Below, in pieces: positions 1,769 to 44,467 of a stretch of DNA of 64,000 nt (the stretch's first letter is position 1; every line of letters starts with the position of its first letter). The stretch lies in NCBI GenBank assembly GCA_010093995.1, contig ML992501.1:1394566-1458565 (forward strand), read 5' to 3'. The DNA comes from Elsinoe ampelina (lineage: Eukaryota). The notes under the pieces are model-generated. The model had not been told where the DNA came from. It worked only from the letters and a program-made list of their open reading frames with translations, and ran no database searches. The position numbers and the translations under genes were made by a program.

Positions 1769-3102
1769 CTCCTTTCCTGTGTACTGGTGAATCAAAAACG
1801 ATGCAACAAAGTCACACAAGAATACAGAACAAAATTCAGATGCCGCAGTGCCCTCCCATTTGAACACGTCTTACCTCTATTCCGAACTGCTGCAATAGGT
1901 AATATTTGCCTCGTCAACTTACGGGTGTATTTTCTCCCTTGGATCTGCAAGGCCCAAGGAACGAGTGTCAATTCGGAGTGGATCTTTGTCCGGCTACCGA
2001 GAGTCAAGATGGGCATAACGTTCTCCGCGGGGATACGAGCCACCCCCAGGAAGCGAGCCCCCCTTTAGAAGCTGGAAAGCGGTGAGATAGGGCCGAAGAT
2101 ACCCCGACAAGCCAGTTTTAGTGAGAGATGTACATCTTGGCATACCTTATGGCTTCTTAATCGATCGAGCTTGTTGTTAACCCCTTTAATCCATGTCGTT
2201 AGTATAGAGGCTCTTAAGGCTAAGGCTTAGAGTTAGTGTTTTTAGCTTATAATTAAGACCTTAGAAAGCGCTAAAGAACCTATTTTATAGTGTAGAATTG
2301 CTTCCTTATGTCCTTTAGCTATATAGCACTATTTACTAACTCTAGCTATCTCTAATCTCTTACTATAGAGAACTTATCTTAGCTTAACTAGCTTAACTAG
2401 CTTAACTATTTAAGTGCTTAATAATAATCTCTTTCTCCTCTACTATCTCCTCTATTACTTACATAGTAGTATTAGCTTTATCTACCTTAATACTATTAAT
2501 CTCTAGTATATATTAATAACCTCTTATAGCCTCTTACTCTTCCTTAGCTATATAGAGGCGTTAGATAGTAGCTTAGTAATCCTTTACGGAGTGTTAGTGT
2601 TAAGCTTAAAGAGTTTACTAGTTAGCTATAGAGGTAGATTAACAAAGTTACTTAGCTAATTTAACTCTCCTTTTATAAGCCTTATTATACTTTTTATCTA
2701 TATTAACTACCTTCTTATTAATAGCTAACTACTTACTAACCTTTTTAGCACTAAGCACTACTCCTCTAGAGGGGTAGCCTCTCTTCTACTTCTTCTATAA
2801 GGCCTTCTTCTTAGTACGCTAAGTAACCTTATAGAGTTAATTCTTAAGTAAGATAGCTCTTTACCTCTCTATCTTCTTACTCTTATAAGCTTAGATAAAG
2901 GCCTTATAAAGTTGTTAAATTACACTCTATTAGTAGCTAATAACTCGCTACTAAGTATCGATATGTTACTTAGTAAGGTAATTAAGCTTCTAGTAGAACT
3001 ACTAGTTAGTTTTAATAGAGGTATTACTAGTTAGTAAAGAGTTAGAGAATTAGTAAGAGAGTATTAAAGGCGATAAAGAAGTAACTTCTTAAGGAGTTAA
3101 GG

Positions 3103-3199
3103 ATTATAAGAATTATAAGAATTATAAGAATTATAAGAATTATAAGAATTATAAGAATTATAAGAATTATAAGAATTATAAGAATTATAAGAATTATAA
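3103..3199. repeat. Perfect 9-bp tandem repeat (ATTATAAGA), 10 full copies plus a partial copy
   Basis: Units read directly at 3103, 3112 ... 3184, with a partial unit at 3193; lies inside the pogo #1 transposase relic. Confidence 0.97.
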
Positions 3200-4248
3200 A
3201 GGCTATATAGATTAATATTAAATTTATATAATTATAACTTCTAAATCGAGAAGCATTAATCTAGTTACTCTAAAGGCTATTATTTACTTAAGCTCTTTAA
3301 ATACTTTATTATATATAGTAGCGTAAGCCTCGAGGAAGTAGTACTTATTAATCTAATTAATTCTCTTATATATAATATTACAAATTGCCTCTTAATAGTT
3401 ATACTTTAGTTATAAGAAGATTAAAATATTAAGAGGCTAAAGGAAGTAAGAGGTATAAGGTAGTAGCTTAGTAAGGATAATATAGTACTTATAGGCTAGC
3501 TAGATAAATTTAGCTATAAGGTATAAGTAATAACTATTAAGGATAAGTAATCTCTAGTAATATTTAAGATTCTTCTTCTTTATAGTCTTACTATTGTTAT
3601 CTACTAGCTAGGTATAAGAATTAAAGTGCTTTTTTAACTAGTAGAGAGTAATCTTATTATTTAACTAGCTAGTTAGTAAGGTAGTAATAGAGGCCTCTTT
3701 ATATAAGGAGCGCACTAGTAGTTAGATTAGCTTCTTAATCTAATTCTCTATTAGGGCCTCTCCTTTAAGAATAAAGAAAGGAGGTACTTAATAGCTAGCT
3801 ATATTAACTGTTTTAATTATCGTAGCTTACTTATACTAGCCTAGCTACTATAAATAGGTTTAATACTAATCTTATATTTGTGCCTATATCTAATTTAACT
3901 CTATTATACTAATATAGTAGCTAATTTCGTCTATATTATAAAGGTTATAACTCTTAACTTAGTACTTCTAATAGAGGCCTCTAATAAGGTTATACTAGTG
4001 CCTAATCTTATTAAAGTTCTCTATCTCTTCTAAATAAACAATATCTATAGCTAGACGCTATACTATACTAATTTTGTAGTGTCTTTATCGAAAGTGCTTA
4101 TACTAGTACGTACTAAGAGGCCTAAAGATAGTATTTAGTAGTAACTTTAAGGTTTATAATAGAAGTAGATAAGTGTAATTTATAAGCTAGTAACTACTAA
4201 GATTAAAGCCTCTACTAGCTAGAAACTTAATTAAGCTAATAAGAGCTT

Positions 4249-4711
4249 TATTACGAACTAGTAGAACAGCTAGAATATAGGGACGTTAGGACTAATTAAG
4301 CTGCTAAGATTATTATATAACCTAGCTCGACGTTTACCTAGTTCTCTATCTTCTCTAGCGGCTCTACCTCTAAAACTATAGAGCACGTAGGTTACTAGCG
4401 GACATATACTCTATGTTGCCTCTAACTCTCGCTATGGAGTATATAAAGTATATAGAGAACGTAATAGAGAATATATATATATAGGAATAGTCCTTACCTT
4501 ATATAAGTACTATAGTTAACCTTGTCTAGATAGCGAACACTAGTATTGCTAAGGCTAGCCTTTATAATACTATCTAATTGTACTTTATTATCTATAAGAT
4601 ATATCTTCTTTAACTCTTACCTTAGTACTATACTACTATAGAAGTAGAACTACCTTGTTCCTAGCTTAGCTTAGACTACTAGTGTAGGCTATATTTAGAC
4701 GGTTCGTAACA
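4249..4711 (+). repeat. Gypsy 5' LTR (463 bp)
   Basis: TATTACGAAC...GTTCGTAACA, i.e. mutated TG...CA inverted termini; colinear with 10755-11217. Confidence 0.95.
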
Positions 4712-6591
4712 TTTTAACTACCCTTACTATAGTATAGTACGCTACGAGGTTAATAAGTAACTCTCGCTCTAAGTTACTATTAGCATCTTTAATCGCTAGT
4801 AAGCTAGAAAAGCTTACTATTAACGACATGTCTACTACTAGTTTAACCTCGGGCGAATATAGAAGGTCTTTTAGTATAGAAGGATAGAGTAGGCCTAAGT
4901 TAGAGGTAGAACTCTTCTATAGGGACCGTGCCTACTTAAGGCGCTTCCTTGTTTAACTTAAAGCCTTCTTCGCCCTAGAGGGAGATAAGTATAGTAACGA
5001 CGTAGTAAAGGTCCTCTATACTAGGATACACCTTAAGAGCGCCGCCTTCGAGTAGTTCGAGCCTTATATAAGTAGCTACCTAGATAGATAACTAGGCCTA
5101 GATATAAAGGCTATCTTTAAGAGCTTTAGCATCTTCTAGGCAAAGATTAAGTAAGTCTTTAACGTATCTAATAAGGAACGCGTCGCCGTGACAAAGATCT
5201 AACAATTATAATAACGTAGGTCTATAGCCTAGTACTATTCCTAGTTCTAATAACTCGTAATACACCTAGACTAGGACAATAGTACTAAACACTTAGTATT
5301 CTATTAAGGACTAAGCGACTCGGTTAAAGACTAAATAATACCCGAGCTGCCTAATAGCCTTTAGGAACTAGTAGACACTATAATTACTATTGACAATAGA
5401 CTTTACAAACGACGTATAGAACGTCGTAGAGAATATAAAGTAAATACTAGATATACGCGTTCCTCCCGAAACTATAGAGACTCTATAGAACTTAATACTA
5501 TATACGAAGGCTGCCTCTTATAGGTATAAGGCTATAGTCGTAGAGGAAAGTTCCTTAGTAGAAAAGAGAGAGAGAAGTATAGATAAGATAACTTATGTTT
5601 TAAGTGTAAAAGACCTAGGCATTAGGCTAGGGACTACTAATAAGAGGCGCTAGCCGATAGATTATATATAATAGTTGCCGGGCTAGTAGAAAAAAAGGCT
5701 AACACTACTATAGAAGACCTAACGACCTTTAGCGTAGGCAAGGAAACATAGAAGGAGTCTACGACGACTCGAGAGGCAATAGAATTCTCTCTAGATATTA
5801 TACTTAATATCTCTACGACTAATAGTAAATAACAAAGCTAAAACGTAACGCTATTATAGATAGTATATTACGATAACTCTTATTATATTTACTTATTAGA
5901 TAAGTAGGGATCTAGTTAGTTCCTATATAAGCTATCTAAGTATAGATAACTAACAAAATAGCTAGACTAGGGGCTTAACCTAGAAAGGCTCTCTATAATT
6001 AGTAGTAACATTAACTAACCTTAGAAGGTAGTTAGTAACAATTACTAATATACAATTATCGAGATAAAGTATTAGGACGCAAGTACTACGTAATAATATA
6101 GTAGCCTTACCTTTAGCCCTTACGGCGAACTATAAGAAAAGGCGTATTATATATCGCTCTAGAAATGTATAAATCTAGATTATAAATAGTACTATACTAT
6201 CTACTTATATAATATGCTCGGAGAAGACGCTATTAGTCTTAAATACACTACGGACTTCTTAGTAATTAAGATAGGTAGTACTATTCTCTATAGCTAAGTA
6301 AAAGAATATACTCGGTGTAGCCTTACTAACTATAACTATACTAGAGGTAGTAGCGATAAAGAGAAATATAACGAAGAATACACCGAATAACTACGATATA
6401 ATAATACAAATAAGGACTTATTCGACAATAACGACAACGACGTACTACTATCGGGCGAACGACTTAAAGTATACCTTATAGAGATATAGAGGAATTATAT
6501 AATAATATACACCTACTACTAGAATAGAACGTAATAAGACAAATCTATATAACTTGTTTTTGTCTTTAATACTAACGCCTAGCTATACCTA

Positions 6592-6721
6592 NNNNNNNNN
6601 NNNNNNNNNNNNNNNNNNNNNNNNNNNNNNNNNNNNNNNNNNNNNNNNNNNNNNNNNNNNNNNNNNNNNNNNNNNNNNNNNNNNNNNNNNNNNNNNNNNN
6701 NNNNNNNNNNNNNNNNNNNNN
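6592..6721. other. Assembly gap (130 N) inside the Gypsy element
   Basis: Run of N characters. Confidence 1.
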
Positions 6722-9700
6722 GGATTAGCTACTTATCTAAGGAGCTATAATAACAAAAAACTAGCTAGTTATCGCCTAATAAGGTAAGACGATAATACTA
6801 GCTAAAGCCTTAATATAATAAAGATCTACACGTTAAACTACTTTATACTAGAAGTAGAAATATAAGAGAGTAAGATAAGAGCAATAATAGATTTAGGAGC
6901 TAACTATAGCTACGTCTCTATAATAGTTGCTAATTAGCTTAAACCTTATTAACACTAGAAGGAGTTACCTTACCTACTTACTATAGTAAATAGAACCCCT
7001 ATAGAGAAGAATAGGAAAGTTACTTAGGAACTACGAAACGTTATAATCTAAATCGAAATATATACGGAAAAACGATCGATCGATATAGTTAACATATAGT
7101 ATAATATAGTACTTAGTATAGACTAGCTTTAATAATATAATCTAGACGTAGACTAGATTAAAGAAACACTCGAATTCCCTAAGTATAATTATAGAACGTA
7201 AAGAGCATAATTAGCTCTACGAATACTAACTATAAGGACAGTATAGGTACGACTAATAGTTAGAGCTATTGCTAGCGTAAGCGATTAAGTACTTCCGCTA
7301 GAATATAAAGACTTTAAGGACTTATTTAAAGAAAGGAAAGGCATTACGGCCTTACCTTAATATAAACTATAGAATTACAAAATACCTTTTAAAGAAGGTA
7401 AATCCCTAATACACTATTAAGGTCTTATACTACTATCGAAATAAGAGGAGAATGTCCTTAAGGACTATATCGATAAGTACTTACTTAAAGGATTTATACG
7501 ACTATTAAAATTACCTATTACGTATAGAGTGCTTTTTGCACTAAAAAAGGATAGAACGTTATAAATATATATTAATTACTAGAAACTTAATACACTTACT
7601 AGGAAGAATTGCTATCTCTTACTAAGGATTAACAAACTTTAAGACCGACTACTTAGAGCTAAATAGTTTACTATAATTAACATTAGAGACGCCTATTATT
7701 AAGTATAAATAAAGGAGAGTAAGGAGTAGAAGACGGCTTTTAGAACGTAATAGAGTCTATATAAGTACCTTATTATACCCTTTAGGTTAACTAACGCTCC
7801 TATAACCTTCTAAGAGTTAATTAATAATACTCTACGAGAATACCTTAACAATTTTATCTTAGCATATTTAGATAATATTATTATCTTCTTAAAGATATAT
7901 AATAAACACGTAGGACATATTCGTAAAGTACTATAGAAACTAAAAGAAAAAGACCTACCGGTAAAACTCTCTAAGTATAAGTTCTATAAACATAAGATAT
8001 AATTTCTAGGCTATGTTATATCTACTAATAGTATTAGACCTAATCCGAAGAAGATCGAGTTAGTAAATAACTAGCTAGAACCTACGACAGTTAAGGAGGT
8101 TTAAGCGCTACTAGAGTTCTTTAACTACTACTATAAGTTTGTTAAAGGATTCTCTAAGGTAGCTACGCTAATATTTAACCTTACGAAAAAGAAAACTAGC
8201 TTTATCTTCGATAAGAGATATAGGTAGGCCTTTAAGGAGCTAAAGCTTAGACTTACGATAGTACCTGTCCTAGTACTCTTTAACCTAGACTAATAAGCAC
8301 TACTAGAAACAGATGCCTTAGACTTTATAATAGAAGCGTATCTAGCGTAGAAGGGCGTAGAAGAATAACGCTGCCTAATTGTATACTACTTACGAAAAAT
8401 GACTAGACTTAAACTTAACTACGATATATACGATAAGGAATTACTTATAATTATAGAAGCGTTCCGCGAATAGAGAGTATACCTAGAAGAGACAACCTTA
8501 CCCGTATAAGTCTATACCGACTATAAGAACCTTCTATATTAGATAACAACTAAGGTTCTTAATAGACAACAGATTTAATAGTTAGAAACACTTATAAGCT
8601 ATAACTTCTAGATCTACTATGTTAAGGGATTAGAGAACAACGAAGTAGACGCTCTTAGCCGCTAGCCGGATTACTTAAAAAATATAACAATAATAGAGGC
8701 CTCTATACTAAAGTAGTAGGACGGCGCTCTAGTCTATAAGTACCCGAAGGTAGAGTAGTTATATAGCCTTACCTAGGAGCTTACGTAAGAACGGAAGAAA
8801 GAAGTTATTTAAATATACTATAATAACCTAATAGCGAGATATAGTAGGATCAATAAGACTATTAAACTTATTACACGAAACTACCTCTAGAAAGAACTCT
8901 AAAACAATATTAAGACGTATATTGCCGCCTGCGATATATGCTATAAGTCTAAGCACTCTCGATATAGACTATATAGCCTACTATAACCCTTACTACTACT
9001 AGATAAACTATAGCAATTAGTTACGATAGACTTTATAGGACCTCTACTACTATTAGAAGAACCTCTTATAGGTGTAAAGTATAATAGTATTCTAGTTCTA
9101 GTAGATAGGTTTACGAAGTATTACTACTTTGTCCTATATAAGACAATAGTAACTACTAAGGATATAGCCTTTACCTTTCTCTAAACAATTGTTTTACGAC
9201 ATAGAGTACTATAAGACCTAATAACTAACAGGGATAAGCTATTTACGTCACAATTCTAGTAATCATTTATAGACCTACTAGAAGTTAAATATAAGCTATT
9301 AATCTCCTTTTACCTATAAACGGATAGATAAACTAAACGGGTAAATTAAGTACTAGAGTAGTACCTACGATACTACCTAAACTATAAGTAAGACTTATAA
9401 GCGACGCTATTACTACTTATAGAGCTCGCTATTAATAATAGAAAGTTAGCAAATAGAATTTTACTATTCTATATAAACTATAGAATACACCCGGATCTAT
9501 ACTATAACATACTTAGAATTAAGCTAGTATCTAAGGATGCTAATATACTAGTAGCTAACATTAAGAAACTACACGACTAGCTATACTATAATATAGCATT
9601 TATATTATAAAGAATAGTAGAGTTTGCTAACCGAAAGAGAATTACGAGACTAATTCTATAGGAGGAGGAGAAAGTTTACCTCCTTAGTAAAAATATTAAA

Positions 9701-10199
9701 ACAAAACAACTAAGTAAGAAACTTAACTATACTAAACTAGGACCCTTTAAGATCCTAGAAAAGAAAAACAAGAACGTATATAAACTAGAACTACTAAGAC
9801 ATATAAGGATTTATCTAGTCTTTTATATATTACTACTAGAGAAAGTACTATAGAATACTATACCTAGACCTATCGAACTAGAGAAAGAAACATAGGAGCT
9901 ATAGTATAAGATAGAAAGGGTTTTACATTATAAACTTATAAAAGGAAAACGCTACTATCTTATTCACTAGAAGGGACATTAGTATAGTAAAGTAATATAG
10001 GAACTAGAGAAGCACCTTACCTCGTAAGTAATCCTAGATTACTAGATTAAGAACCTATTCTAAGCAAACCGACTAGACAGACCTAGCACTCTAAACACTA
10101 AACAAAAACGAGAATGCCTAAGGAAGATCGCTTAACTAATAGAAGTACCTTAATCGTTACTAAGTAAGGAACTCTAATTAGAGTTAGGCATAAATAACT

Positions 10200-10680
10200 A
10201 CTAGTCCTATAGTAGGACAGAATCTACTAACAATAGTATTTCCTTCTACTCTAAGACTTAAATACGAGTCTCTTCTAGAGAGATTACTTTCTCTACCTTG
10301 TCCTCTAACTTTTATATCTCTTCGCGTAGGTAAAGCTTATTACCTATAGCTCTTTAATAAGTCTCTTTTACCTTTTTATAAGCTTCTTCGGCTTCTCTTC
10401 TAGTAGCCTTAGCTATAACTAATTCCTTTCGTAAACGAATATACTTAGACTAAAGACGCTACTATTCCGATTTTGTTACTTAAATATTATAACCTAAGTA
10501 GTTACTTACGATATACTAGCTATAGATACCCGACCGAATATAGACCTTATAGTCTAGCCCCTTTAATTTGTAACGAGAATAAGCCTATAGCATGTTAGTT
10601 CTAAATAGTTTAATAAACTCTAAGAGATTCTTTTATATAGATATACTAGATTTGCTATGCCTTCGACAACTAGAAGGCAT
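10200..10680 (-). pseudogene. Antisense accessory ORF of the Gypsy element: RIP-destroyed Zn2Cys6-like cluster plus coiled coil (3' end approximate)
   Basis: From ATG 10680 one frame reads ...ML*AYSRYKLKGLDYKVYIRSGIYS*YIVSNYLGYNI*VTKSE**RL*SKYIRLRKEL... Six Tyr codons are spaced x2-x6-x8-x2-x7, and each is one G>A change from Cys. Confidence 0.7.
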
Positions 10681-10754
10681 ATTTAGTATATAGCGTATAA
10701 GAATAAGGAAGAATACTTACTTGTTAGAACAACTCGATTAAAGAAGAAGAGTAA

Positions 10755-11217
10755 TATTACAAACTAGTAGGACAGCTAGAATATAGGGACGTTAGGACTA
10801 ATTAAGCTACTGAGATTATTACGTAACCTAGCCTAACGTTTACCTAGTTCTCTATCTTCTCTAGCGGCTCTACCTCTAAAACTATAGAGTACGTAGGTTA
10901 CTAGTAGACATGTACTCTATATTGCTCCCGACTCTCGCTATAGAGCATATAGAGTATATAGAGAACGTAATAGAGAATATATATATATAGGAATAGTCCT
11001 TACCTTATATAAGTACTATAGTTAACCTCGTCTAGATAGCGAACACTAGTATTGCTAAGGCTAGCCTTTATAATACTATCTAATTGTACTTTATTATCTA
11101 TAAGATATACCTTCTCTAACTCTTACCTTAGTGCTATACTACTATAGAAGTAGAACTACCTCGTTCCTAGCTTAGCTTAGACTACTAGCGTAGGCTGTGT
11201 TTAGACGGTTCGTAATA
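10755..11217 (+). repeat. Gypsy 3' LTR (463 bp)
   Basis: TATTACAAAC...GTTCGTAATA; the differences from the 5' LTR that were inspected are C/T and G/A transitions. Confidence 0.95.
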
Positions 11218-11708
11218 GGCTTATTCTTAACTAGGTATAAGTCGTTACTAGTGTTAATATAACTCGAGGTGTAATACTTACTTACTCTTTAGCTAGCGAC
11301 TTAGAGTCTTATATTTTACTAAAGGAAAGCATTTTATAAGCTAATAGATAGAAATTGTGCCTTTTAAGGCTTAATACTTATAGATAGCTACAATAATTTG
11401 CTCTTTATAGTGGATTTTAGCAGTTGTTAGTATTATAAAGTAGTTTATATTAGGTGAGGAAGTATAAGATTAAGAGGCAGATTATAGAAGTTTTAATTAC
11501 TCGATTAGGCAATAGGATCGGAGTAAATTTAGCACCTCTAATTAGCTTCTTTAGGCCGTTTATCTATTTTAAGAATATTAGCTAAGGTAGACTTACTTTC
11601 TAGAGATAGCTTATATCTCTACGAAGAACGTTAGTAGAGAACGAGATCGAGTAAATAACTAGCGATATAACTAGCGACATAATAGGACTAATGTCTATAC
11701 TTTATATA

Positions 11709-14423
11709 ATATACGCTATAGAGGTTTATAGCTCTCTCCCCTTTATAGCGCTACTAAATCGAGAGTAGAATTACCGCCTATTAGTATATATAAAAAGGCG
11801 TCTTTTTAGTAGGTCTAAATATATCTTAGCGAGCTAAAAGCCCTAGTATAGTTTCTTCTTAAGGCTTAAAAATGTAAAGCTAAAAAAAGATAGTATAGAC
11901 TAGCTCTTAAGGCTTAAAAATTAAAGCTAAAAAAAGATATAATAAGCTATTACTACTAGCTATTATATAGAAGCATTTATAACTCTTAACTATCTAGCAC
12001 TTCTAGAAGCTAAATGCTCTAAGTGCTTAGAGGCTAAGTACTCTAAGTACTCTAAGTACTTTAGCTAACTATCTCCTATAGTAGTATCTAAGCTCTTTAT
12101 ATTTACTATTAAGGTAAGAATTATAAAATCGATAGAGGAGGAGTTAGTAAGGCTAGAGAGAGTAGCAATAGTATAAAAGGTAGTACTAGAAATAAGAAGG
12201 AGAATATTAAAGACTAGTAAGGCTAGAGAGGTATAATAAAAGGTTATAGTAGTATTAGTAATAGAGAAGAAGGAGGTAAAGATTAGCATAAAGAGTTTAC
12301 TAAAGAGATTAAAGTACACCGCTGCCTTTTTTTAGCTAGCCTTTAACTACTTAGCTAAGTACTAAATTACGAGTTAGACTATAAGTTAAATTATAAGCTA
12401 GATAAGGCCTTTAAAGGCTTAATTCTCTTCTTGTAATTATTACGCTAGAATATAGCGTTAAGGTGTTACTACCTTAATTACTCGTATATAGTTTATACTA
12501 TTTAAGTTTATAAGTCTTTATAGCTAAAGAGTAACTTATAGTTTTACTAGTGCTTTTAAGCCTATTAACGCTTAGTATAAGTAATATAAGTCTCCTCCTT
12601 AAGCTATTTAAGTAGCTATTACTATTTATGCTTTTTAATTAAGTCTTCTATGTTAAGTATATATATATTAGCCTTTATATAATTCTTTAGCCTTGCCTTT
12701 TTAGTTCTTACCTCTTCTTCTAACTTAGCTACTCTCTTATAAAGAAGTATATTAGTGTTAGTAGCAATATTATAGCTCTTTTATAGCTTCTCTACTATTA
12801 CTTCTACTATAGAGTTAGTAAGATAGCGTATATAGCTAAGCTAATAGTTAAAATAATACTAAGTTTAAGGTGTAATATTAAGAGTAAAAGGAGTAACATC
12901 TAGTAGAGAGCTATCTAAGAGAACTTAAGAGAATAAGGTAGCTATAAGGCTATTAAGTCGATTAAGTACTTAGTGTAAATTATAAGGCTAGATTCTAGCG
13001 GCTTTAAAGGCGTTAAGTTAAGTATTATAGCTAAAGGTAATATTATAAATATTTAAATAGGCCTTAATAAAATTAATATATATAATCTTATTAACTACTC
13101 GGTGTACTTTAGCTTAGATCTTATATTAATAATTAGCCTTTAAAGCTATAAAGATTATAATATTAAGAGGCTAAAGAAGATATATTAAATACATAAAGAG
13201 AATAAGAAGAATAATACCTTTCTTATAAGTAAGTAATAGAAAGGGGAGCGACTTATAAGTGCTATAGCTATCTATTATAAGTAGCCTTTTATAGTGCTAG
13301 AGATTCTTCTCTTTTACCTCCTCTATTAAATTTAGATAGTAAGGTCTTATATACTTATAAAAAAGACATAACTACTCGATAGTATAATTCTTATCTAACT
13401 AGCCGTTTTATAATACTACTATCTTACTGTTTTATATACTATCTTATAGTAATAGTTAAGTAAGCTAGTAGCTCTAATTAACATTAATATTACTACCTTT
13501 AAGAATGATATAGAGGGGTATTTAATAGCTACTAGCACTTAGAGTCTTAATAGTTATAGCCTATGTTCTATCCTCTAGTTAGCGGCGTATTAGTGCCTTT
13601 AAGTCTCTCTTAATAACTAACTAAGCTAGGCTAGTTTAGCCTATTATATATCTAGTCTTATCTATGTTATATATGTTCTAACTATTAATATTATACTAGT
13701 TAATTGTTGCTTCTAAGGTGCTAAACTATAACTTAATAGAAGCTAGATCTTAGTTCTTATTTGCTCTTTTACTATTAAGGGCTTAAGTATACTTAAGAAA
13801 TAGTTCTAAATAATATTTAAGAAACTTATAAGGCTAGTTTTTACTAATAGACTAAGGCTAAGACTAGTAAGAGAGAGAGAGGTTATTTATCTAGTTATAC
13901 TAGATAATTTAATTAGTAAGTTTACTAATTATAGTATAAGTAGAAGAGTATCTACTATTAATAAGATACTTAATATATCTAACTAAGGCCTTCTCTTATA
14001 TAGAGGTAAGTTGTTATTATAGTATAGCTATACTTAACTACGTAGTATAGAGGCTCTAAATATAGTATAATAGAGTTATTATAACTACTTCTAGATAGTA
14101 ACAGGTAAGCTCTTTAAAGCTTAGAGAGTGTTTAGAGGTATAATATTCAGTAATTGTAGCTTAAATTGCCTCTTTATAGCATGTAGTAGTAGTTCTAGAA
14201 GAGGGTATATTATAGTAATTAGGTAGTTAATACTAAAGCTGTCGAGTAAAACTTAGAGATTTCTTAATTGCCTATTTAAGCTAAATACTAGAGCTACGGC
14301 TCGTACGCTAATAGGCGTCGCTTCTCGGCATAATATAGCTCGTCTCTATATCGAGTTAAATTAGTAAGCTTACTACTGTAGGCCTATAAAGGGGGGGGAG
14401 CTATAAACCCCTATGGCGCACGT
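11709..14423 (-). mobile_element. Fot1/pogo-type DNA transposon #2 (2715 bp), RIP-degenerated
   Basis: 40-bp TIRs at 11709-11748 and 14384-14423 are 33/40 identical, all 7 differences being transitions. TA TSDs at 11707-11708 and 14424-14425. Minus-strand relics: YNIDKTRYIIG (=YNMDETG) ~13660, RLLIIDSYSTY (=RLLIMDGHGTH) ~13270, and YLL*PLNI (=HLLQPLD) ~13170. Confidence 0.92.
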
Positions 14424-14713
14424 TACCTATCACATCTGAGCAAGTTTCCTATCAGCCCACGTTCCTCGTCAGCTGTCATGCTCTACCCGATCCCCGTTCC
14501 TCCTCCCAACGAACTCCTGGAGCCGCGCATATCGTGACTCTGTGCCACCGCGCCCTGGCCCCCGCCGATCCCAGTTCACCCAAGGCCGCCCGCGCCACCC
14601 GCGTCCAGATTTAGACGTCGCAGTCCCTCACCTTGAAATCCAGCTGAACTGCACCTCATAACCCACCAACTATGCCACCCTACTGACATTTTCCTCGCGA
14701 CCACCCCACCACA

Positions 14714-24642: not shown

Positions 24643-24911
24643 GGAGGCTAGAGTTCGAATGTAAGAAGATCCTGCGCAGGGCTGATCTCTTGGTGTTGGG
24701 CCATGCTATAGTGCCTATCGAGCTTGTGTAACTACATTTTATCCTCGAAGAACTCCATGTTGTTGTCGTGTCTTGTCCAAAGTCGGTCCAGCGGGCTACA
24801 GCTCTCAACTTTGATTATGCATGATGATCTGCTAAAGTGACCTACCCGACAAAATTTGCATAGCGCCTTGCCAAGAGCTCGGCGTGCGATTTTTGCAGCA
24901 AAAGCGCGAGG

Positions 24912-25053
24912 TGTTGTAATGGAAGGCTGGTACAGCTTCTCTGGTACTGAAGAACTGGTACTGATGAGTCAGCGCACGCACAGTAGATAAATCGGTTATT
25001 GTAACTCTCTGAATGAAACACACGTCTCTCGATCCGATTTGCTAGTTATAACA
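24912..25053 (+). repeat. Copia 5' LTR (142 bp)
   Basis: Identical to 30140-30281 except T at 25049 versus C at 30277. Confidence 0.98.
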
Positions 25054-28000
25054 GGTTATGAGCCCGGCGCTTCTATAAAAGCACTTAAAGCTATAGCAAA
25101 TTAAGCGTGTCATTATTAAAAGGATCACTAAGCCGCCTATACTAAATTCTAGACTAGCTACATTAAGATAAACACTTATAGTAGCCCACATTAACCCTTT
25201 AATCAAACGGTTTAAACGGCTTAAACAAGCTAATTACATTAATTAAATTAACAGGCCTTTAGCTAATTACTATTATTATGTCTAGATTAGCAAAAATGCT
25301 CGAGACTTAGATTCTTAAGAGAGGAAGCAACTATAATACTTAGAGATTAACCCTTAAGGTAGCCCTCCTTAAAAAGGATATACTTAGATATGTAATTTAT
25401 AACATCGACTAGATACTAGTAGTTATAAAGCCTAAAGAACTAGCCCTAGATGCTAGTAAAGGCACTAAGGCAATCTATAAGGTTAGGAACAAGACCTAGC
25501 ACAAGAATAATAGAATTACTTATAGTGTTATTATAATAAGGATTTATAAATCTATTAGACCTTACTATAGTACAACTTAGAAGACTTTAAAGGAACTTCT
25601 AGACACTATTAAAGCTACATTTAAACCTATTATTTCATATAAGCTGTATGTAGCTATCTATAACCTTAATAAGGTAATTATAACGAGTTATAACACCTAA
25701 AGGTACTATAAAGATTTTATAAAGTACTATTATTAATACACTATTACTATAAAGCAAAGAGCAAGCACTATTAGTGCTAAACTAGATAAGTTTAGGCTCC
25801 CTCTATACTATATTAAGACTATGTTTATCATAGAAATAGAGACTACTAAATAGTTAAGGAGCTAGAGATCTAGCCTTAACTATAAGAAGAGTCTTAAAGA
25901 GATAATAGACTCTCTTAGAATATAGAAGCCCCTATACAATAGAAGAACTAATCTAAACCCTATTTATAGAGTAGCTAGTTATATTAAGGATTAATACACT
26001 TAGTGCACTTATTATATCTACTCTAATATAGATTGCTTTAAGTAGCACCCTAAGAAAGCACTAAAGAGTTAGAGCAAAAGGGATAACAAAGATAGGTTAA
26101 ATAACAAAGGCATAAAGGCTAAAGGCAAAGGTAACAAGTTAAAGACTAAGAAAGTTAGAGGTTAAGTAGCTATTAAAGAATCTAGAGAACCTACTAAGGT
26201 AGGTAAATTAGATAAACGCTCTAACACTAATATTAATATTATTATACTAGTCTATAGAGTAGTAGTAGTGTCTATATTATTATCCTTAACCTATAGCAAG
26301 AATAGAGCAATCTATAACTCTAGTGTATTAAGGCACTTTATTAAAGACAGGTTATAGTTCTTAACAATCAAGGTACATAAAGGTGTTCTTAAATTTAAAT
26401 AAGCTATTAGCATAAAGAAGCTACTTAATATAGAAGTTAGTATAGTTAGGCTTACCCTAACTAATAGCAAAGGCAAGAAGTTAATTATTAAGCTTTATAA
26501 TTGTATATACTTACTATTATTACTAAACACCCTTATATCTAATCTTTAGAATAAAGAGGAACTTAGTATCTCTATAGTTAGCAAATTCTTAATGAAGGAT
26601 AGAAAGGAAGTTAGCCTTATTAAACACTTTAAAAGAGTTAAATAGCTTAAGAACTTTAAAGTATATAAGCCTTAGAACTATAAGGAATTACCTATAAGGC
26701 TAAAACTATAGAAGCTATAGGCTATAAGAGCAAATCTAGCTATTATAACTACTTAAAAGCTAACATTAGAAAGATAGCACTAGAGGTTAGGCTATGCTAG
26801 TAACACTATTCTCTCCCTTACTAAAAGTTAAGCTATTAGATTAGAAGAACTTTAAATATTAGATCTTAGCTACTATAAACTATGTGCTATATTAAAGGCA
26901 TAGAGGGTAGTATTAAGAGAACTAAGGGATACGCTAAAGTGCTTACTAGATAAACTCTATCTAGACCTTATTAGTCCTATTAAACTATAGTTAAGTAAGG
27001 GCTATAGATACCTTCTCTTTATAACATATAGCAAGAGTAAGTACAAGTTTATTACTATTCTCTTCCTTAAGAGTAATATACTAGCAGTAATTAAACTTAT
27101 CTATACAAGGAATAAAATAGTCTATAATAAGCTTTTATTTATCTTTATCTCTAATAGAGAAAGTAAATTCAAGAACTATAAACTAGCAATAGCTATTTAT
27201 CTTAAAGAGTAGAGATAGAACATCTCTACACCTAATACTTAATACTAAAATAGTAAATCTAAGGCTACTAATAAAGTAGTTATTCTTAGAATAAGATACA
27301 TCTTTATTAATTATAAAGCACCCCTTAAACTCTAGTATATAGTTATAGAGTTTATAATCTATATTAGTAATAGAATTACCTATACTAAAACTAAGAAGAT
27401 CCCTATATAAGAGCTAAGAAAGAATCTTCTTAATAATAATAGGCTAGTCTTATTAACTTATATTAGACGCTTCGGCTATAGAGCTTATGTCTATAACTAA
27501 CATATTTCTAAATTACACAAATTCTAAGCTAGAGCACTACTTAGTTAGCATGTTAGCATATAGAACAACTTAACAACTAATTACCTTATCTAGATACTCT
27601 ATTAGTATTATACTTAGTAAGCCTAGAAGAGAAAGATTATTATATCACCCTATATAATATTCAATAAGAACATAGTCTATAAAGACTAGGTAACATAAGT
27701 TATTAAATAGCTATATATCCTATAGGTATAACAACCTAAGGCTTTATAGCTTTAGGGGGAGTAGACATTTAGTAGTAATCATAATTAAGGCTATAGCTAT
27801 AACTAACTACCCTTTAGTTATAAGAATCTATAAACTACTTAGGCTAAATAACCTTAAGTTAAACAACTAACATCTAACTACTCTTCTATCCCTAGATATA
27901 AACAACAATTATCTACCCCTATTAAAGAATAGAAGAAGCAATACTAACATCCTAAACTAGATCCTTAACCTGTTAATAAACAGGGGGAGCAACTTAATGT

Positions 28001-30139
28001 TACTAATTATAAAGGTAAAGACCTTATAATACTACTACCTAAAGTTATTAGTGAACTATATTTAACCTTTAATCCTATAGTTAATGTTAATTAACTACTA
28101 ATATATATATAGAATAAGGATATTAACTTCCTTATTACACTATTTAATATATAACCTCTAACTAGTAAAAGGAAAAGATCTCTCTTACTATAAGAAACTA
28201 TTAGAAGGTCCCTTAGAATACATCGCTAGATTAATTACAAGAAACTTAACAATAGTAAGATTATTAGATCTATAGCTGTTAATTTTAAGCTAGACCTACA
28301 AATAGTAAGAGATGTACTATTCTCTCCTAAAGGTTATTACTAGTAAGCTATAATAGAGGCAGAGTAGAAGGCTCTAACTAACTCTAAAACCTTTTTAATT
28401 ATTAAGAAATCTTAGGCACTAAGAGGTGTTAGGCTAATAATAGGCAAATAGGTCTTTAAGACTAAAAGGCTTACTAATAGTAAAGTTAAAAGATATAAGG
28501 CTCGTTAGACTATAAGGGGCTTTACTTAAAGAGTAGGTATTAACTTTGTTAGAACCTTTACACTAATACTAAGAGCTGAAACTAGGAGAGTAATTCTTGT
28601 ATATGCTCTTTATTATAACTAGGTTATTATAACAGTAGATACAGTTACTGTATTTCTTAGACTAGACATTAATATTAAGAACTATATCTCCTACCTAGAA
28701 GGCGTACTAATTCCTAGTAAATAGAACAAGCTTATTGTTCTTATAAAGGGCTTATATAGGCTTAAGTAAGCTACTACCCTCTAGTATAACGCTATAGTTA
28801 AGGCACTTCTATTACTTAGTTTTATTAGATCCTATAGTAATACCTATCTCTTTATTAACAAGTATTATATAGTTCTTATACATATTAACAACTTTAGAAT
28901 TATTACTACTAAGTAGAAGCATATAGACAAGCTAGTTAAAGATCTTTATCTTAAGTTTCTAATAAAGATTATAAACTTAAACCTCTTCCTTAGTGTTTAA
29001 CTTTATAGAACTAAGGACTTAATTAAGATTAAGCAATTACACTACTTAAAGAAGAAGCTTAAAGGTTATAATCTTTACTAAGTAAGAACTGTAAAGCATC
29101 CTATTAATTAACTCTATAAACTAACAAATAGCTAAGTTAATACTTAGTACTATAAGACATTTAATAGGATTATTAGTGAATTATAATATCTAGCTAATAA
29201 CATAAGGCCTGATATTAGCTATGCCACTAATTACCTAGCTAGGTTCCTTTAGAATCTAACTATAGCTTATATAGTTACAGCTAAGCAGATCTAGAGGTAT
29301 ATTAATAGGACTATTATAAAGGGCCTTACCTTTAAGAAGACTAATAGACTATTAGTTAACATAATTAAGGCCTACTCTAACTTAGACTTTGCTAGAGATA
29401 GATTAACTATAAGATCTACATCTAGTACTATCATTTATATACTTAGTGCACTAGTTATTTAGAAGTTAAGGCTATAGAAGATTATTGTATTATTAAGCAC
29501 TAAGGCTAAATACCTTGCCCTTACTAAGACCTATAGAGAGATTAATTAGTTAAGAAATCTTATTATTAAACTTAGGCTACTTGCTAATATTCACCTTAGC
29601 CTAACTATAGTCTTTGTTAATAACAAGTTAGCTATTAAACTTACAAGAGATTATACTAATTTAAGGAGATCTAAGTATATTAATTTAAGGAATTATTACT
29701 ATAGAGAGTAGCATAAACTTGGAGTAATTAAGCTTAAGTACATTAATACAACTTAGTAATTGGCTAATGCACTTACAAAGCCTAAGTCTCCTAATAAGAT
29801 CCTTAATTAATTAGCAAAGGCTAATTACTTAGTGTATATCTACACTATACACTTATTTGGATTTTATATGTATTGTCATTTCAAGCATGTTATTTATGCT
29901 ACTACCACTTATTAAGCTATCTTATTTGTCTAAAGCTTAAAGCAAATTGTTTCATCATTAAGAAGAGAGAAAGGAAAAGCTATTATAACCCTATTACTGG
30001 CTGCTCATGCCTGAGCTACATCCACCACTCAGTACCATCATCACCTTCAACAACCCCCACCTATCCCCTACCTCTAATCACTTCACTTACATGTGACAGG
30101 ACAGTTCTCCAGCTTCAGCAATCTATACCAGAGGGGGAG

Positions 30140-30281
30140 TGTTGTAATGGAAGGCTGGTACAGCTTCTCTGGTACTGAAGAACTGGTACTGATGAGTCAG
30201 CGCACGCACAGTAGATAAATCGGTTATTGTAACTCTCTGAATGAAACACACGTCTCTCGATCCGATTTGCTAGTTACAACA
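30140..30281 (+). repeat. Copia 3' LTR (142 bp)
   Basis: TGTTGTAA...TTACAACA inverted termini; 141/142 identical to the 5' LTR. Confidence 0.98.
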
Positions 30282-42181: not shown

Positions 42182-42472
42182 CTACATGAACACTCAGTCT
42201 GATGAATTGGGAGATAAGCGAATCTGAAGAACTCCTTGCTAGTCAGAGATTTGGACGAGGATCTTCCAGTTCGATCATGGATTAGTGAAACGGAGGATGA
42301 GTGGTGGATCCAGCCTCGGGATGAATTGATGCAGGGTCTTTCTTGGCACTGTCACTCCCCTCCGAGAGTGCGAGTTTTCCGGTCTTGGCGGCTTCATAGA
42401 GTTGCATCACCAACTATCTTATCACTTTAAGGCTTGATTATTCTATCAATTTTGAACTTGAAGGTGTTATTC

Positions 42473-43888
42473 TTATTTAGAGTAATTGTTATAACCTTAT
42501 ATATCTCTATACTTCTTTCTTAGCTTCTTAAAAGCTACTAAACTATAGTACTTCCTTACCTTTTAGTTAAACTCCTTTACTTCCTAGACAGCCTTAAGTC
42601 TTGTATTAGCCTCTAACCTTGTAGTCTTCTTCTAATTACAAACTGCAAATATAAAGGCTTTAAGAGGCTTCTTTTATTTATAGTAGAGTATTTTATAAGG
42701 ATTTAAATCTAGTAAAAAGGCTAAATAACTACTAAATTTAATACTAAGCCCCTTAATATAGTAGGCTATAATCTTTCGAGCCTTATAATAAACAGTGCTA
42801 TTGTCTTTAATTACTACTACGTAGCGGCTAGAGTTAGAGCCTTTAAGCTACTCTATATAAGGAAAGAGTAGCTTATTATAGACTTTAAAGGTATACTAGA
42901 GGCTATTAAGTTTACATGCTTTAGCCTTAAAGTTGTTATATTTAAATAGCTATTCTAGCTTCTTCTTATAAGTCTTATACTTAAAACTAGCTTTAGTGTT
43001 ACTCTTATTAACTTTATAGATATAGCGTTAAAGAGCCTCTAGCTACTAGTACTCCTCTAAGTCCTTATTATAGATAGCTTACTAGCGCTTCTTATCTATA
43101 AGCTAGCAGTTTATAGCATTAATAATAGCTAGTTTACTCTTTAGATTATACTACTTAATATTATTAAAATTCTACATAATATAAGGCTATAGTATAAAGC
43201 AATTTTAAGCACTTATAGTAGCCTATTACTTATATATAAAGTTTAGTAAGATCTCTATTCTAATTAGAGTTACTCCTTAAGGTATAGAGACTCGTTTATT
43301 AGCTATACTACTAAAGGTCTACTTCTTTTTATTATAGATAATAAGAATAGCTTATTCTTTAATATATCTATAAAGCTTACTACTATCCTTAGTATATTTA
43401 AGTTAATACTCTAGAGAATACTAACTAGGCTTCCTAATCTTATAATTGTAACTAATAGGCTTATTACTCTCTAGGTCGCTAGCGTAATAATCTAGATAGT
43501 CTTTAATATTAAAGACCTACTTCTTATAAAGCTTTAGAATATTTATATTAAGTTCTCGGAGTACTTTATACTTATTTGTCTAGTTAGTAGAGACGACTAG
43601 ATCCTAGCTACTATTTAGCTAGATAGTATTTTAAACTATAAAAGACTTAGCCGAGCCTAGCGCAATAAGCGGTTTTAGGCCTTATAGGCCTTTATTCTTT
43701 GCATGCTCTATTAATTTATATAATTTACTACTCTTAGTAGCCTTTAAAACCTTAGAGAATAGACTTTAGAGAGTATTCTTATAGATTCTAAGGAGCTCCT
43801 CTACCTCTAAGATAGAGAGGCTAAGATTAAAGTAATAAGCAATTACAGTTTAATAGAGCTATAAAGGGAGGTCTTTACTACGTCCTAT
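42473..43888 (-). mobile_element. Tc1/mariner (IS630-like) transposase relic, RIP-degenerated; TIRs not resolved
   Basis: N-terminal HTH-like IGRSKDLPL*...LSILEVEELLRIYKNTL. DDE relic VIKDNSTVY (=EDN..xH) and LAFLLDLNPYK (=P.xSPDLNPxE). AT-rich block spans ~42430-44160. Confidence 0.82.
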
Positions 43889-44467
43889 AATTGTTTAAGC
43901 TTTAATAACATATTATTAATAGAGTAATAACTATATAGAGTTACGTGTAATAGAGTAGATAAGGAGGTAAATAATACTAAGACCGAAGAAACTTACACTC
44001 TTAGAGGCCTAAGATTTTTAGGTTGTTATTGACACCTCGAAATATAGTGTAATAACTACTAGAACCTAGTATCTAAGTATAGATAGTAGACTTTTAGATT
44101 TGCTATTTACATCTAGTAGTATTTGCATTAATATTCTTACTAGATGCTAACAATTCTAGGTGATTACGACTGGCAAGACAAGGGGGTTAATTGCGTCTAT
44201 TCGTCAAGATATCGAGACTTAGAAAAAGAAGAAGAAAACTAGTGTACAAAGCACGCGTGATATCGAGGGCGGAGCGGCCGGAAGCCCGGGCCGCGATGCC
44301 GAGATCACGTGACCAATCCGAACTGTATCTCAACCGAATCCAGTTCATATCCATCTCGCATCACTAGGATCCTTACCTTTCTAAGGTGTAACTAACACTC
44401 TAAAAATCCCAGTATATACTAGTGTAACATGAGTCAGCTTAATTTTGACAGAGGCTTCCTATGAGAA

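Follow-up and report, generated by a model that had tools for sequence, protein, structure and literature searches.

The chromovirus and its antisense frame

The stretch of DNA analysed here, referred to throughout as the window, comprises 64,000 nucleotides of the Elsinoe ampelina genome (assembly GCA_010093995.1, contig ML992501.1, positions 1,394,566 to 1,458,565 of the forward strand). It contains an LTR retrotransposon with an additional frame on the opposite strand, and the features of this element are as follows, in window coordinates.

4244..4248, plus strand: left target-site duplication, AGCTT; the right copy, at 11218-11222, reads GGCTT and differs by one transition
4249..4711, plus strand: 5' LTR (93.7% identity with the 3' LTR over 461 nt)
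4801..5700, plus strand: RIP-degraded gag, limits approximate and translation judged by eye, with the remains of a CCHC knuckle close to its end
6722..10135, plus strand: RIP-degraded pol (protease region, RT, RNase H, integrase, SH3, chromodomain), its start hidden by an N gap
9905..10027, plus strand: chromodomain remnant, mapped by offset from copy L041
10132..10680, minus strand: antisense accessory gene, dead in the window copy; about 182 codons with a presumed end, collinear with intact relatives of 150-230 aa
10219..10473, minus strand: long, charged helix that is predicted to form a coiled coil; codons 70-154, corresponding to helix 75-159 in the P0003 model (pLDDT above 90)
10489..10581, minus strand: six-position motif with a conserved C3-C4 loop; Tyr here, Cys in intact relatives (Cx2Cx6Cx8Cx2Cx7C)
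10603..10647, minus strand: conserved N-terminal helix ahead of the Cys motif, comprising codons 12-26 and mapped via alignment A1 from helix 17-31 in the P0003 model
10740..10751, plus strand: polypurine tract of 12 purines that ends three bases short of the 3' LTR
10755..11217, plus strand: 3' LTR and candidate site of an antisense promoter

The host element is a Ty3/Gypsy chromovirus, with an LTR pair, a 5-bp target duplication, a polypurine tract and the domain order RT, RNase H, integrase, chromodomain. When the window pol was read with X at its stops, Pfam matches were obtained to RVT_1 (E 4e-18), RT_RNaseH, Integrase_H2C2 and SH3_Tf2-1. The final domain of this order was scored as Chromo in L041, the least-mutated copy (E 5e-6), and in 11/11 relatives; in the window copy, both the chromodomain and gag were without a Pfam match at E 1e-4. 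A run of N at about 6590-6721 hides the gag-pol junction. RIP indices of the region are 1.75-2.44 for TpA/ApT and 0.21-0.29 for (CpA+TpG)/(ApC+GpT), and comparison of the window copy with 29 other copies gave 2030 transitions and 24 transversions. Dating by LTR identity was rejected because RIP inflates the differences between LTRs.

Other AT-rich, RIP-mutated DNA (2500-4248 and 11218-11700) surrounds the chromovirus, which is nested in it, and includes a 9-nt repeat array at ~3071-3232. Also in the window are a RIP-mutated DNA transposon of 2.7 kb (11707-14425), which has 48-nt inverted ends that are 81% complementary and is without a Pfam match, and a RIP-mutated Ty1/copia element (24911-30281) with 143-nt LTRs that are 99% identical and an RVT_2 match at E 1e-20. 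The minus frame of the DNA transposon presumably resembles a pogo/Fot1 DDE transposase. A third AT-rich block of ~1.9 kb (42400-44300) gave no Pfam match in six frames.

A preliminary description of this locus, made from the letters alone, had placed a minus-strand frame starting at ATG 10680 between the chromodomain and the 3' LTR, in which Tyr codons at zinc-cluster spacing are followed by a charged stretch. The frame, the charged stretch and the spacing x2-x6-x8-x2-x7 are all present in the sequence, with Tyr codons at 10581, 10572, 10551, 10524, 10515 and 10491-10489 (codons 34, 37, 44, 53, 56 and 64). The stops were likewise correctly described as being of the RIP type, 13/13 in the first 160 codons being TAA or TAG, and the 3' LTR, put at about 75 bp away, begins at 10755, at a distance of 75 nt from the ATG. 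The extent given for the frame (10200..10680) held at its start and not at its end, since the frame probably continues past 10200 to about 10132. The ATG is present in 29/30 copies.

The pol frame and the antisense frame end on the same TA in the window (10132-10135), as they do in copy L041, and at the intact locus L112 the stops of the two genes overlap by 4 nt; the stops at 10132-10135 may predate RIP or stem from it. Splice-donor-like GTAAGT/GTAAGG sequences occur 25-40 nt upstream of the ATG, both in the window (10715-10720, minus strand) and in a related element at locus L106 (near 7938), with no splice acceptor between donor and ATG in either element. An intron in the antisense gene is not needed, because the relatives align as one collinear stretch (residues 6-148).

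The exact TRY spacing was observed a single time in the window, and 100 shuffles gave a mean of 0.02. The Zn2Cys6 consensus allows 24 spacings, for which arithmetic on the shuffle result gives an expectation of roughly 0.5 per window. As the spacing was fitted post hoc and the loose consensus is expected about that often, the Tyr pattern alone is weak, and the proof of an antisense gene therefore rests on intact relatives.

Within the E. ampelina genome, 112 matches to the antisense frame were found, 100 of them nearly full length. Four copies (G000:C16:476478, C16:469026, C6:167242 and C6:180767) match codons 1-114 only and possibly constitute a deleted subfamily. Among 95 distinct copies, the first 160 codons contain 4-17 stops per copy (median 14). 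The preliminary description had expected that less-mutated copies would have TGY at the six motif positions and an open antisense frame. TGY was indeed recovered at four of the six (in order, in 9, 20, 0, 0, 11 and 2 of 95 copies); it was absent from the other two, and none of the 95 copies was open. Four Tyr codons outside the motif likewise show TGY, in 1-7 of the 95 copies, and the TGG codon at 10464 survives in only one. The two TGY-free positions are compatible with near-saturation of TpG sites. No stop-free match to the antisense gene was present among the 38 scored in this genome. No copy examined in the genome can make the accessory protein, and the window copy, itself dead, serves no function.

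Intact relatives in other elements

Relatives were sought with the least-mutated natural copy, which was read with X at its four stops and carries Tyr at three of the six positions. This query retrieved 84 proteins at E<=1e-3 (best E 6e-32, 48% identity). Among 38 homologues (alignment A1, counted by hand), the residues aligned with the six Tyr are Cys in 36, 38, 38, 37, 38 and 38 cases, and the three exceptions are Tyr, within two proteins that have apparently been hit by RIP. The search was not selective for Cys at these sites, as three of the six were Tyr in the query itself. A search in the opposite direction, started from an intact relative, recovered the window's frame at E 7e-6. The preliminary description had held that the gene is invisible until its mutations are reverted; this was mistaken, as the intact relative finds the frame directly and a natural copy read with X suffices to find the 84 proteins. 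A word-index protein search with the same X-read copy scored 0/96 candidates, and Pfam on two mutated copies gave nothing useful.

Alignment A1 holds 38 of the 84 matches, from which repeat proteins and short or weak matches were excluded, and alignment A2 holds 57 of the 84. Alignment A4 holds 25 of 58 metagenome loci: 30 were chosen, L131 was excluded for its stops, and L136, L138, L144 and L150 were excluded unchecked. Conservation of Cys3 and Cys6 is overstated in A4, because its loci were found by patterns containing Cys3 or Cys6. A profile of the N-terminal region gave 209 longer matches among 8000 candidates; the best 120 of these 209 are all 159-280 aa in length, none has a host-type fusion, and the few that are named are hypothetical proteins of Sporormia, Hortaea and Aureobasidium. 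One relative has been automatically named a Zn(2)-C6 domain protein in UniRef, and a search of the ESM Atlas with an intact relative returned three unnamed ascomycete clusters at 0.90-0.95.

The ORFs of 14 of the 58 loci were read for genomic context. In 11 of them a long ORF on the opposite strand lies tail to tail with the gene, and by Pfam 11/11 of these ORFs are a Gypsy pol that ends in Chromo; the 3' ends of the two frames overlap in 8/11 of these intact loci and are within 102 nt of each other in the other three. The remaining three of the 14 loci are LTR-flanked and comprise two mutated elements of 7.3 kb and one of 2.4 kb without pol. The latter (L106, 7551-9959; the same match occurs in L105) has two LTRs, a perfect CTATC target duplication and the antisense gene, together with a gag remnant in which a CCHC knuckle was recognised by eye. 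It is a non-autonomous derivative that has retained the accessory gene. Both the presence of homologues among fungal proteins and the linkage to Gypsy elements, as envisaged in the preliminary description, were thus borne out, as was its central claim of an element-borne antisense gene: the six Tyr correspond to six conserved Cys in the intact relatives, a coiled coil comes next, and the neighbour is a chromodomain pol.

Protein-level constraint was visible in two comparisons. Between the same two elements, the accessory protein has 48% identity and pol 40% over 768 aa. Two intact relatives (one pair, counted by hand) differ at 50 of 453 sites, 35 of the differences being at third positions, and within columns 22-378 of this pair, 29/34 differences are at third positions and there are four amino-acid changes. 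Shadow ORFs on the opposite strand of the relatives (for example L132, 258-743) were rejected as the selected frame because they are in register, so that the changes hit their first positions. These sequence comparisons show the antisense frame to be a copy, inactivated here by RIP, of a third gene that is encoded antisense between pol and the 3' LTR in a clade of ascomycete Ty3/Gypsy chromoviruses and whose protein is about as well conserved as pol.

Predicted structure of the product and its likeness to zinc clusters

In the AlphaFold2 model of an intact product (P0003, mean pLDDT 86), residues 17-31 and residues 75-159 each form a helix, a small Cys module containing two short helices lies between them, and the tail is acidic and of low confidence. 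The intact product is thereby predicted to be a protein of ~190-200 aa with an N-terminal helix, a divergent six-Cys module resembling a binuclear zinc cluster, an 85-residue dimerising helix and a short acidic tail bearing Trp.

The preliminary description had called the gene Zn2Cys6-like, from the consensus Cx2Cx6Cx5-12Cx2Cx6-8C. Cys spacing in the intact relatives fits this consensus (x2, x6 in 24/25, x8, x2, x6-8). In Foldseek, solved Zn2Cys6 proteins (Hap1, Pho7, Gal4, Leu3, Ppr1, Put3 and Cep3) occupied all listed ranks 1-24 for the full model and listed ranks 1-20 for the N-terminal model, with E values for these neighbours of 0.2-6, so that no fold match was significant. The N-terminal model superposed on the isolated Hap1 and Lac9 clusters with TM 0.58-0.65 by target and rmsd 2.1-2.9 A. 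VIA-align gave Z 2.5 to Ppr1 and 2.1 to Hap1, tied with unrelated chains, and for the full model it gave generic long helices only (Z 7.0-7.5). By structure, Zn2Cys6 clusters appeared in the ESM Atlas at TM 0.23-0.32 only.

Sequence profiles pointed in the same direction at low scores. Zn_clus was the commonest Pfam family match, with 19/57 members at E<=1 (best E 0.0026); none of 30 members scanned reached its curated cut-off of 21 bits, four of the 30 lying at E 0.03-0.08 with a best score of 15.0 bits, and the same scan included four further proteins that are unrelated repeat proteins. Against the PDB, a profile of the full family found coiled coils only, and the N-terminal profile found Lac9 (E 0.17) and Leu3 (E 1.5), with a ribosomal zinc ribbon ranking above them (E 0.11).

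Gal4-type proteins bind two Zn and recognise specific DNA, typically CGG triplets; Gal4 contacts DNA through a Lys in its recognition helix (Cys2+4) and has a Pro two residues before Cys4. By hand count, Lys is found at Cys2+4 in only 4/25 relatives, and Gly stands at Cys4-2 in 25/25. The conserved residues lie instead in the C3-C4 loop, where VHxRSG is nearly invariant. The Zn2Cys6-like label was thus upheld by the spacing and the six Cys, with Foldseek ranks pointing the same way at E 0.2-6, and it fell short at the Pfam cut-off and at the replaced Lys and Pro. In Cys spacing, in a predicted helix-loop-helix cluster followed by a dimerising helix, and in top Foldseek rank, the product resembles the Zn(II)2Cys6 factors of PF00172 (Gal4, Hap1, Ppr1, Put3, Leu3, Pho7 and Cep3). 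It differs from them in its sub-cut-off score, the replaced landmarks, an extra N-terminal helix, a fixed x8 loop with VHxRSG, an 85-residue helix predicted to be antiparallel, a length of only ~200 aa and its location in retrotransposons. The product is Zn2Cys6-like and not a clean Gal4-family member, and its membership of that family is doubtful in detail.

A homodimer was modelled at 0.48, compared with 0.00 for the best control, with runs agreeing in at least 93% of contacts and a pLDDT of 81; this job carried zinc, unlike the calibration, and long helices pair easily in such models. In the calibration, the dimer mark was reached by 21/30 solved pairs and 0/23 single chains (for eukaryotes, 17/29 and 0/30). 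Contacts are antiparallel (88-123', 109-109' and 130-81') and run along residues 71-144 in three agreeing runs. Gal4-type proteins dimerise through a short parallel coiled coil that brings the two clusters together, and this element is far shorter than the 85-residue helix. An antiparallel dimer would hold its two zinc modules apart, one at each end of a rod, and in this it would be unlike Gal4. Taking the models together, the product probably works as a dimeric, nucleic-acid-binding zinc-cluster protein.

Possible roles of the accessory gene and related systems

The most likely of the readings considered, and one that we regard as about as likely as not, is that the accessory protein is an element-encoded nuclear regulator that would bind element DNA, as the preliminary description also proposed. 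The accessory transcript would start from an antisense promoter located within the 3' LTR or beside it; the product would enter the nucleus, bind element DNA, most likely the LTR, through its zinc module and the conserved basic C3-C4 loop, and set transcription of the element, as retroviral accessory regulators do. The RNA contigs of four runs covered none of the gene and included one 80-nt piece of the LTR, which is neutral on expression. The products of plant antisense ORFs are nuclear where tested, according to a passage of PMC7264820, and we count this in favour of the regulator reading.

Several other explanations were weighed against a regulator. The product might instead be an anti-silencing factor: rather than acting at a promoter as a transcription factor, it would bind chromatin, RNA or host proteins and so protect the element from host silencing, whether through RNA interference, heterochromatin or repeat recognition. 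Plant transposons encode such anti-silencing proteins (VANC), counter-defence would be valuable where the host mutates elements this heavily, and the Gal4-type recognition residues have given way, with near-invariance found in another loop, VHxRSG. Such a factor is nevertheless rather unlikely, given that Pfam, the PDB and the ESM Atlas showed no likeness to a known suppressor, that the best fold neighbours are DNA-binding zinc clusters and that every copy examined in the genome has been inactivated regardless. A structural role we judge unlikely: here an antiparallel dimer would bridge the two LTR ends, tether the integration complex to chromatin or carry that complex into the nucleus. The antiparallel contacts in three agreeing runs and a helix far longer than the Gal4 dimerisation element would suit such a role, as would the retention of gag and the accessory gene by the 2.4-kb element without pol. 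Nuclear import has been suggested for such ORFs in a passage of PMC7264820. The predicted orientation of coiled coils is unreliable, however, the integrase chromodomain is already available for targeting, and the acidic aromatic tail would seem more like an activation region.

That the antisense RNA is the effector, forming double-stranded RNA with the 3' end of pol while the protein is incidental, is a mechanism discussed in a passage of PMC7264820, and the overlapping or closely adjacent 3' ends at all 11 intact loci would permit it; strong protein-level constraint makes it very unlikely as the sole explanation, and both functions could coexist. It is highly improbable that the gene is a passenger, a captured fragment of a host transcription-factor gene. 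A large host family shares its Cys spacing, but 14/14 loci read lie in LTR elements, conservation equals that of pol, the best 120 of the 209 longer matches keep to a narrow size without host-type fusion, and the 38 matches scored in the E. ampelina genome included no stop-free one; selection in many element families largely refutes the idea. The chance of a fortuitous Tyr pattern is practically negligible. RIP makes Tyr codons common and the loose spacing is expected at ~0.5 per window, yet the frame aligns collinearly with intact proteins that have Cys in the place of each Tyr, and this alignment and the reverse match refute the explanation.

Passages of PMC7264820, PMC8365987 and PMC4227169 describe ORFs that run antisense between pol and the 3' LTR, both in plants and, as brtn, in Boty-like elements of Botrytis and Sclerotinia, and give their function as unknown. 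Compared by description only, brtn is alike in being an extra antisense gene between a chromodomain pol and the 3' LTR of a fungal Gypsy element; it differs in that these passages on brtn mention no zinc cluster. Among the matches listed, none was named brtn and none came from Botrytis. The accessory gene may belong to the same family as brtn, and a Cys motif may already have been noted in its original description (Zhao et al. 2011) or in the supplements of PMC8365987. The plant aORF-3R genes (Grande gene23, RIRE2, Retand and PvRetro13), as presented in passages of PMC7264820, have the same place and orientation, occur in most copies, show gag-pol-like conservation and have been proposed to be regulatory. 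They differ in having plant hosts and SMC-like and transposase 28 domains without a six-Cys cluster (PMC7264820, same passages). The E. ampelina gene likewise spans nearly the full frame in 100/112 matches in its own genome and is conserved alongside pol.

HTLV-1 offers an analogy only, in that its antisense regulator is dimerising, encoded antisense and read from the 3' LTR. This regulator is HBZ, which has a bZIP domain. An antisense promoter in the 3' LTR of HTLV-1 is mentioned in a passage of PMC7264820. In a literature search judged by titles and abstract starts, with subscription papers outside its scope, none of the papers listed reported a zinc cluster for an antisense ORF of this kind. 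Antisense accessory genes of LTR retrotransposons are already known, and what may be new is the unnamed divergent zinc-cluster-like domain.

It is possible, and we propose it tentatively, that this widespread ascomycete chromovirus clade consists of 'complex' retroelements that encode their own divergent zinc-cluster protein, expressed antisense from the 3' LTR, which would bind element DNA with a recognition surface other than that of Gal4 and could couple the two LTRs as an antiparallel rod with a zinc head at each end. In a passage of PMC7264820, the role of antisense accessory genes in LTR retrotransposons is treated as an open question. Members of the present family are annotated either as hypothetical proteins or under the name of host Zn(2)-C6 factors although they are located in transposons, which bears on annotation. 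The family combines a recognisable metal-binding module with a predicted architecture and has hundreds of intact members, which makes the function of an antisense gene testable. If the 'complex' retroelement reading is true, it would provide a molecular function for the antisense accessory genes of fungal LTR elements and would link the fungal Zn2Cys6 family to mobile elements.
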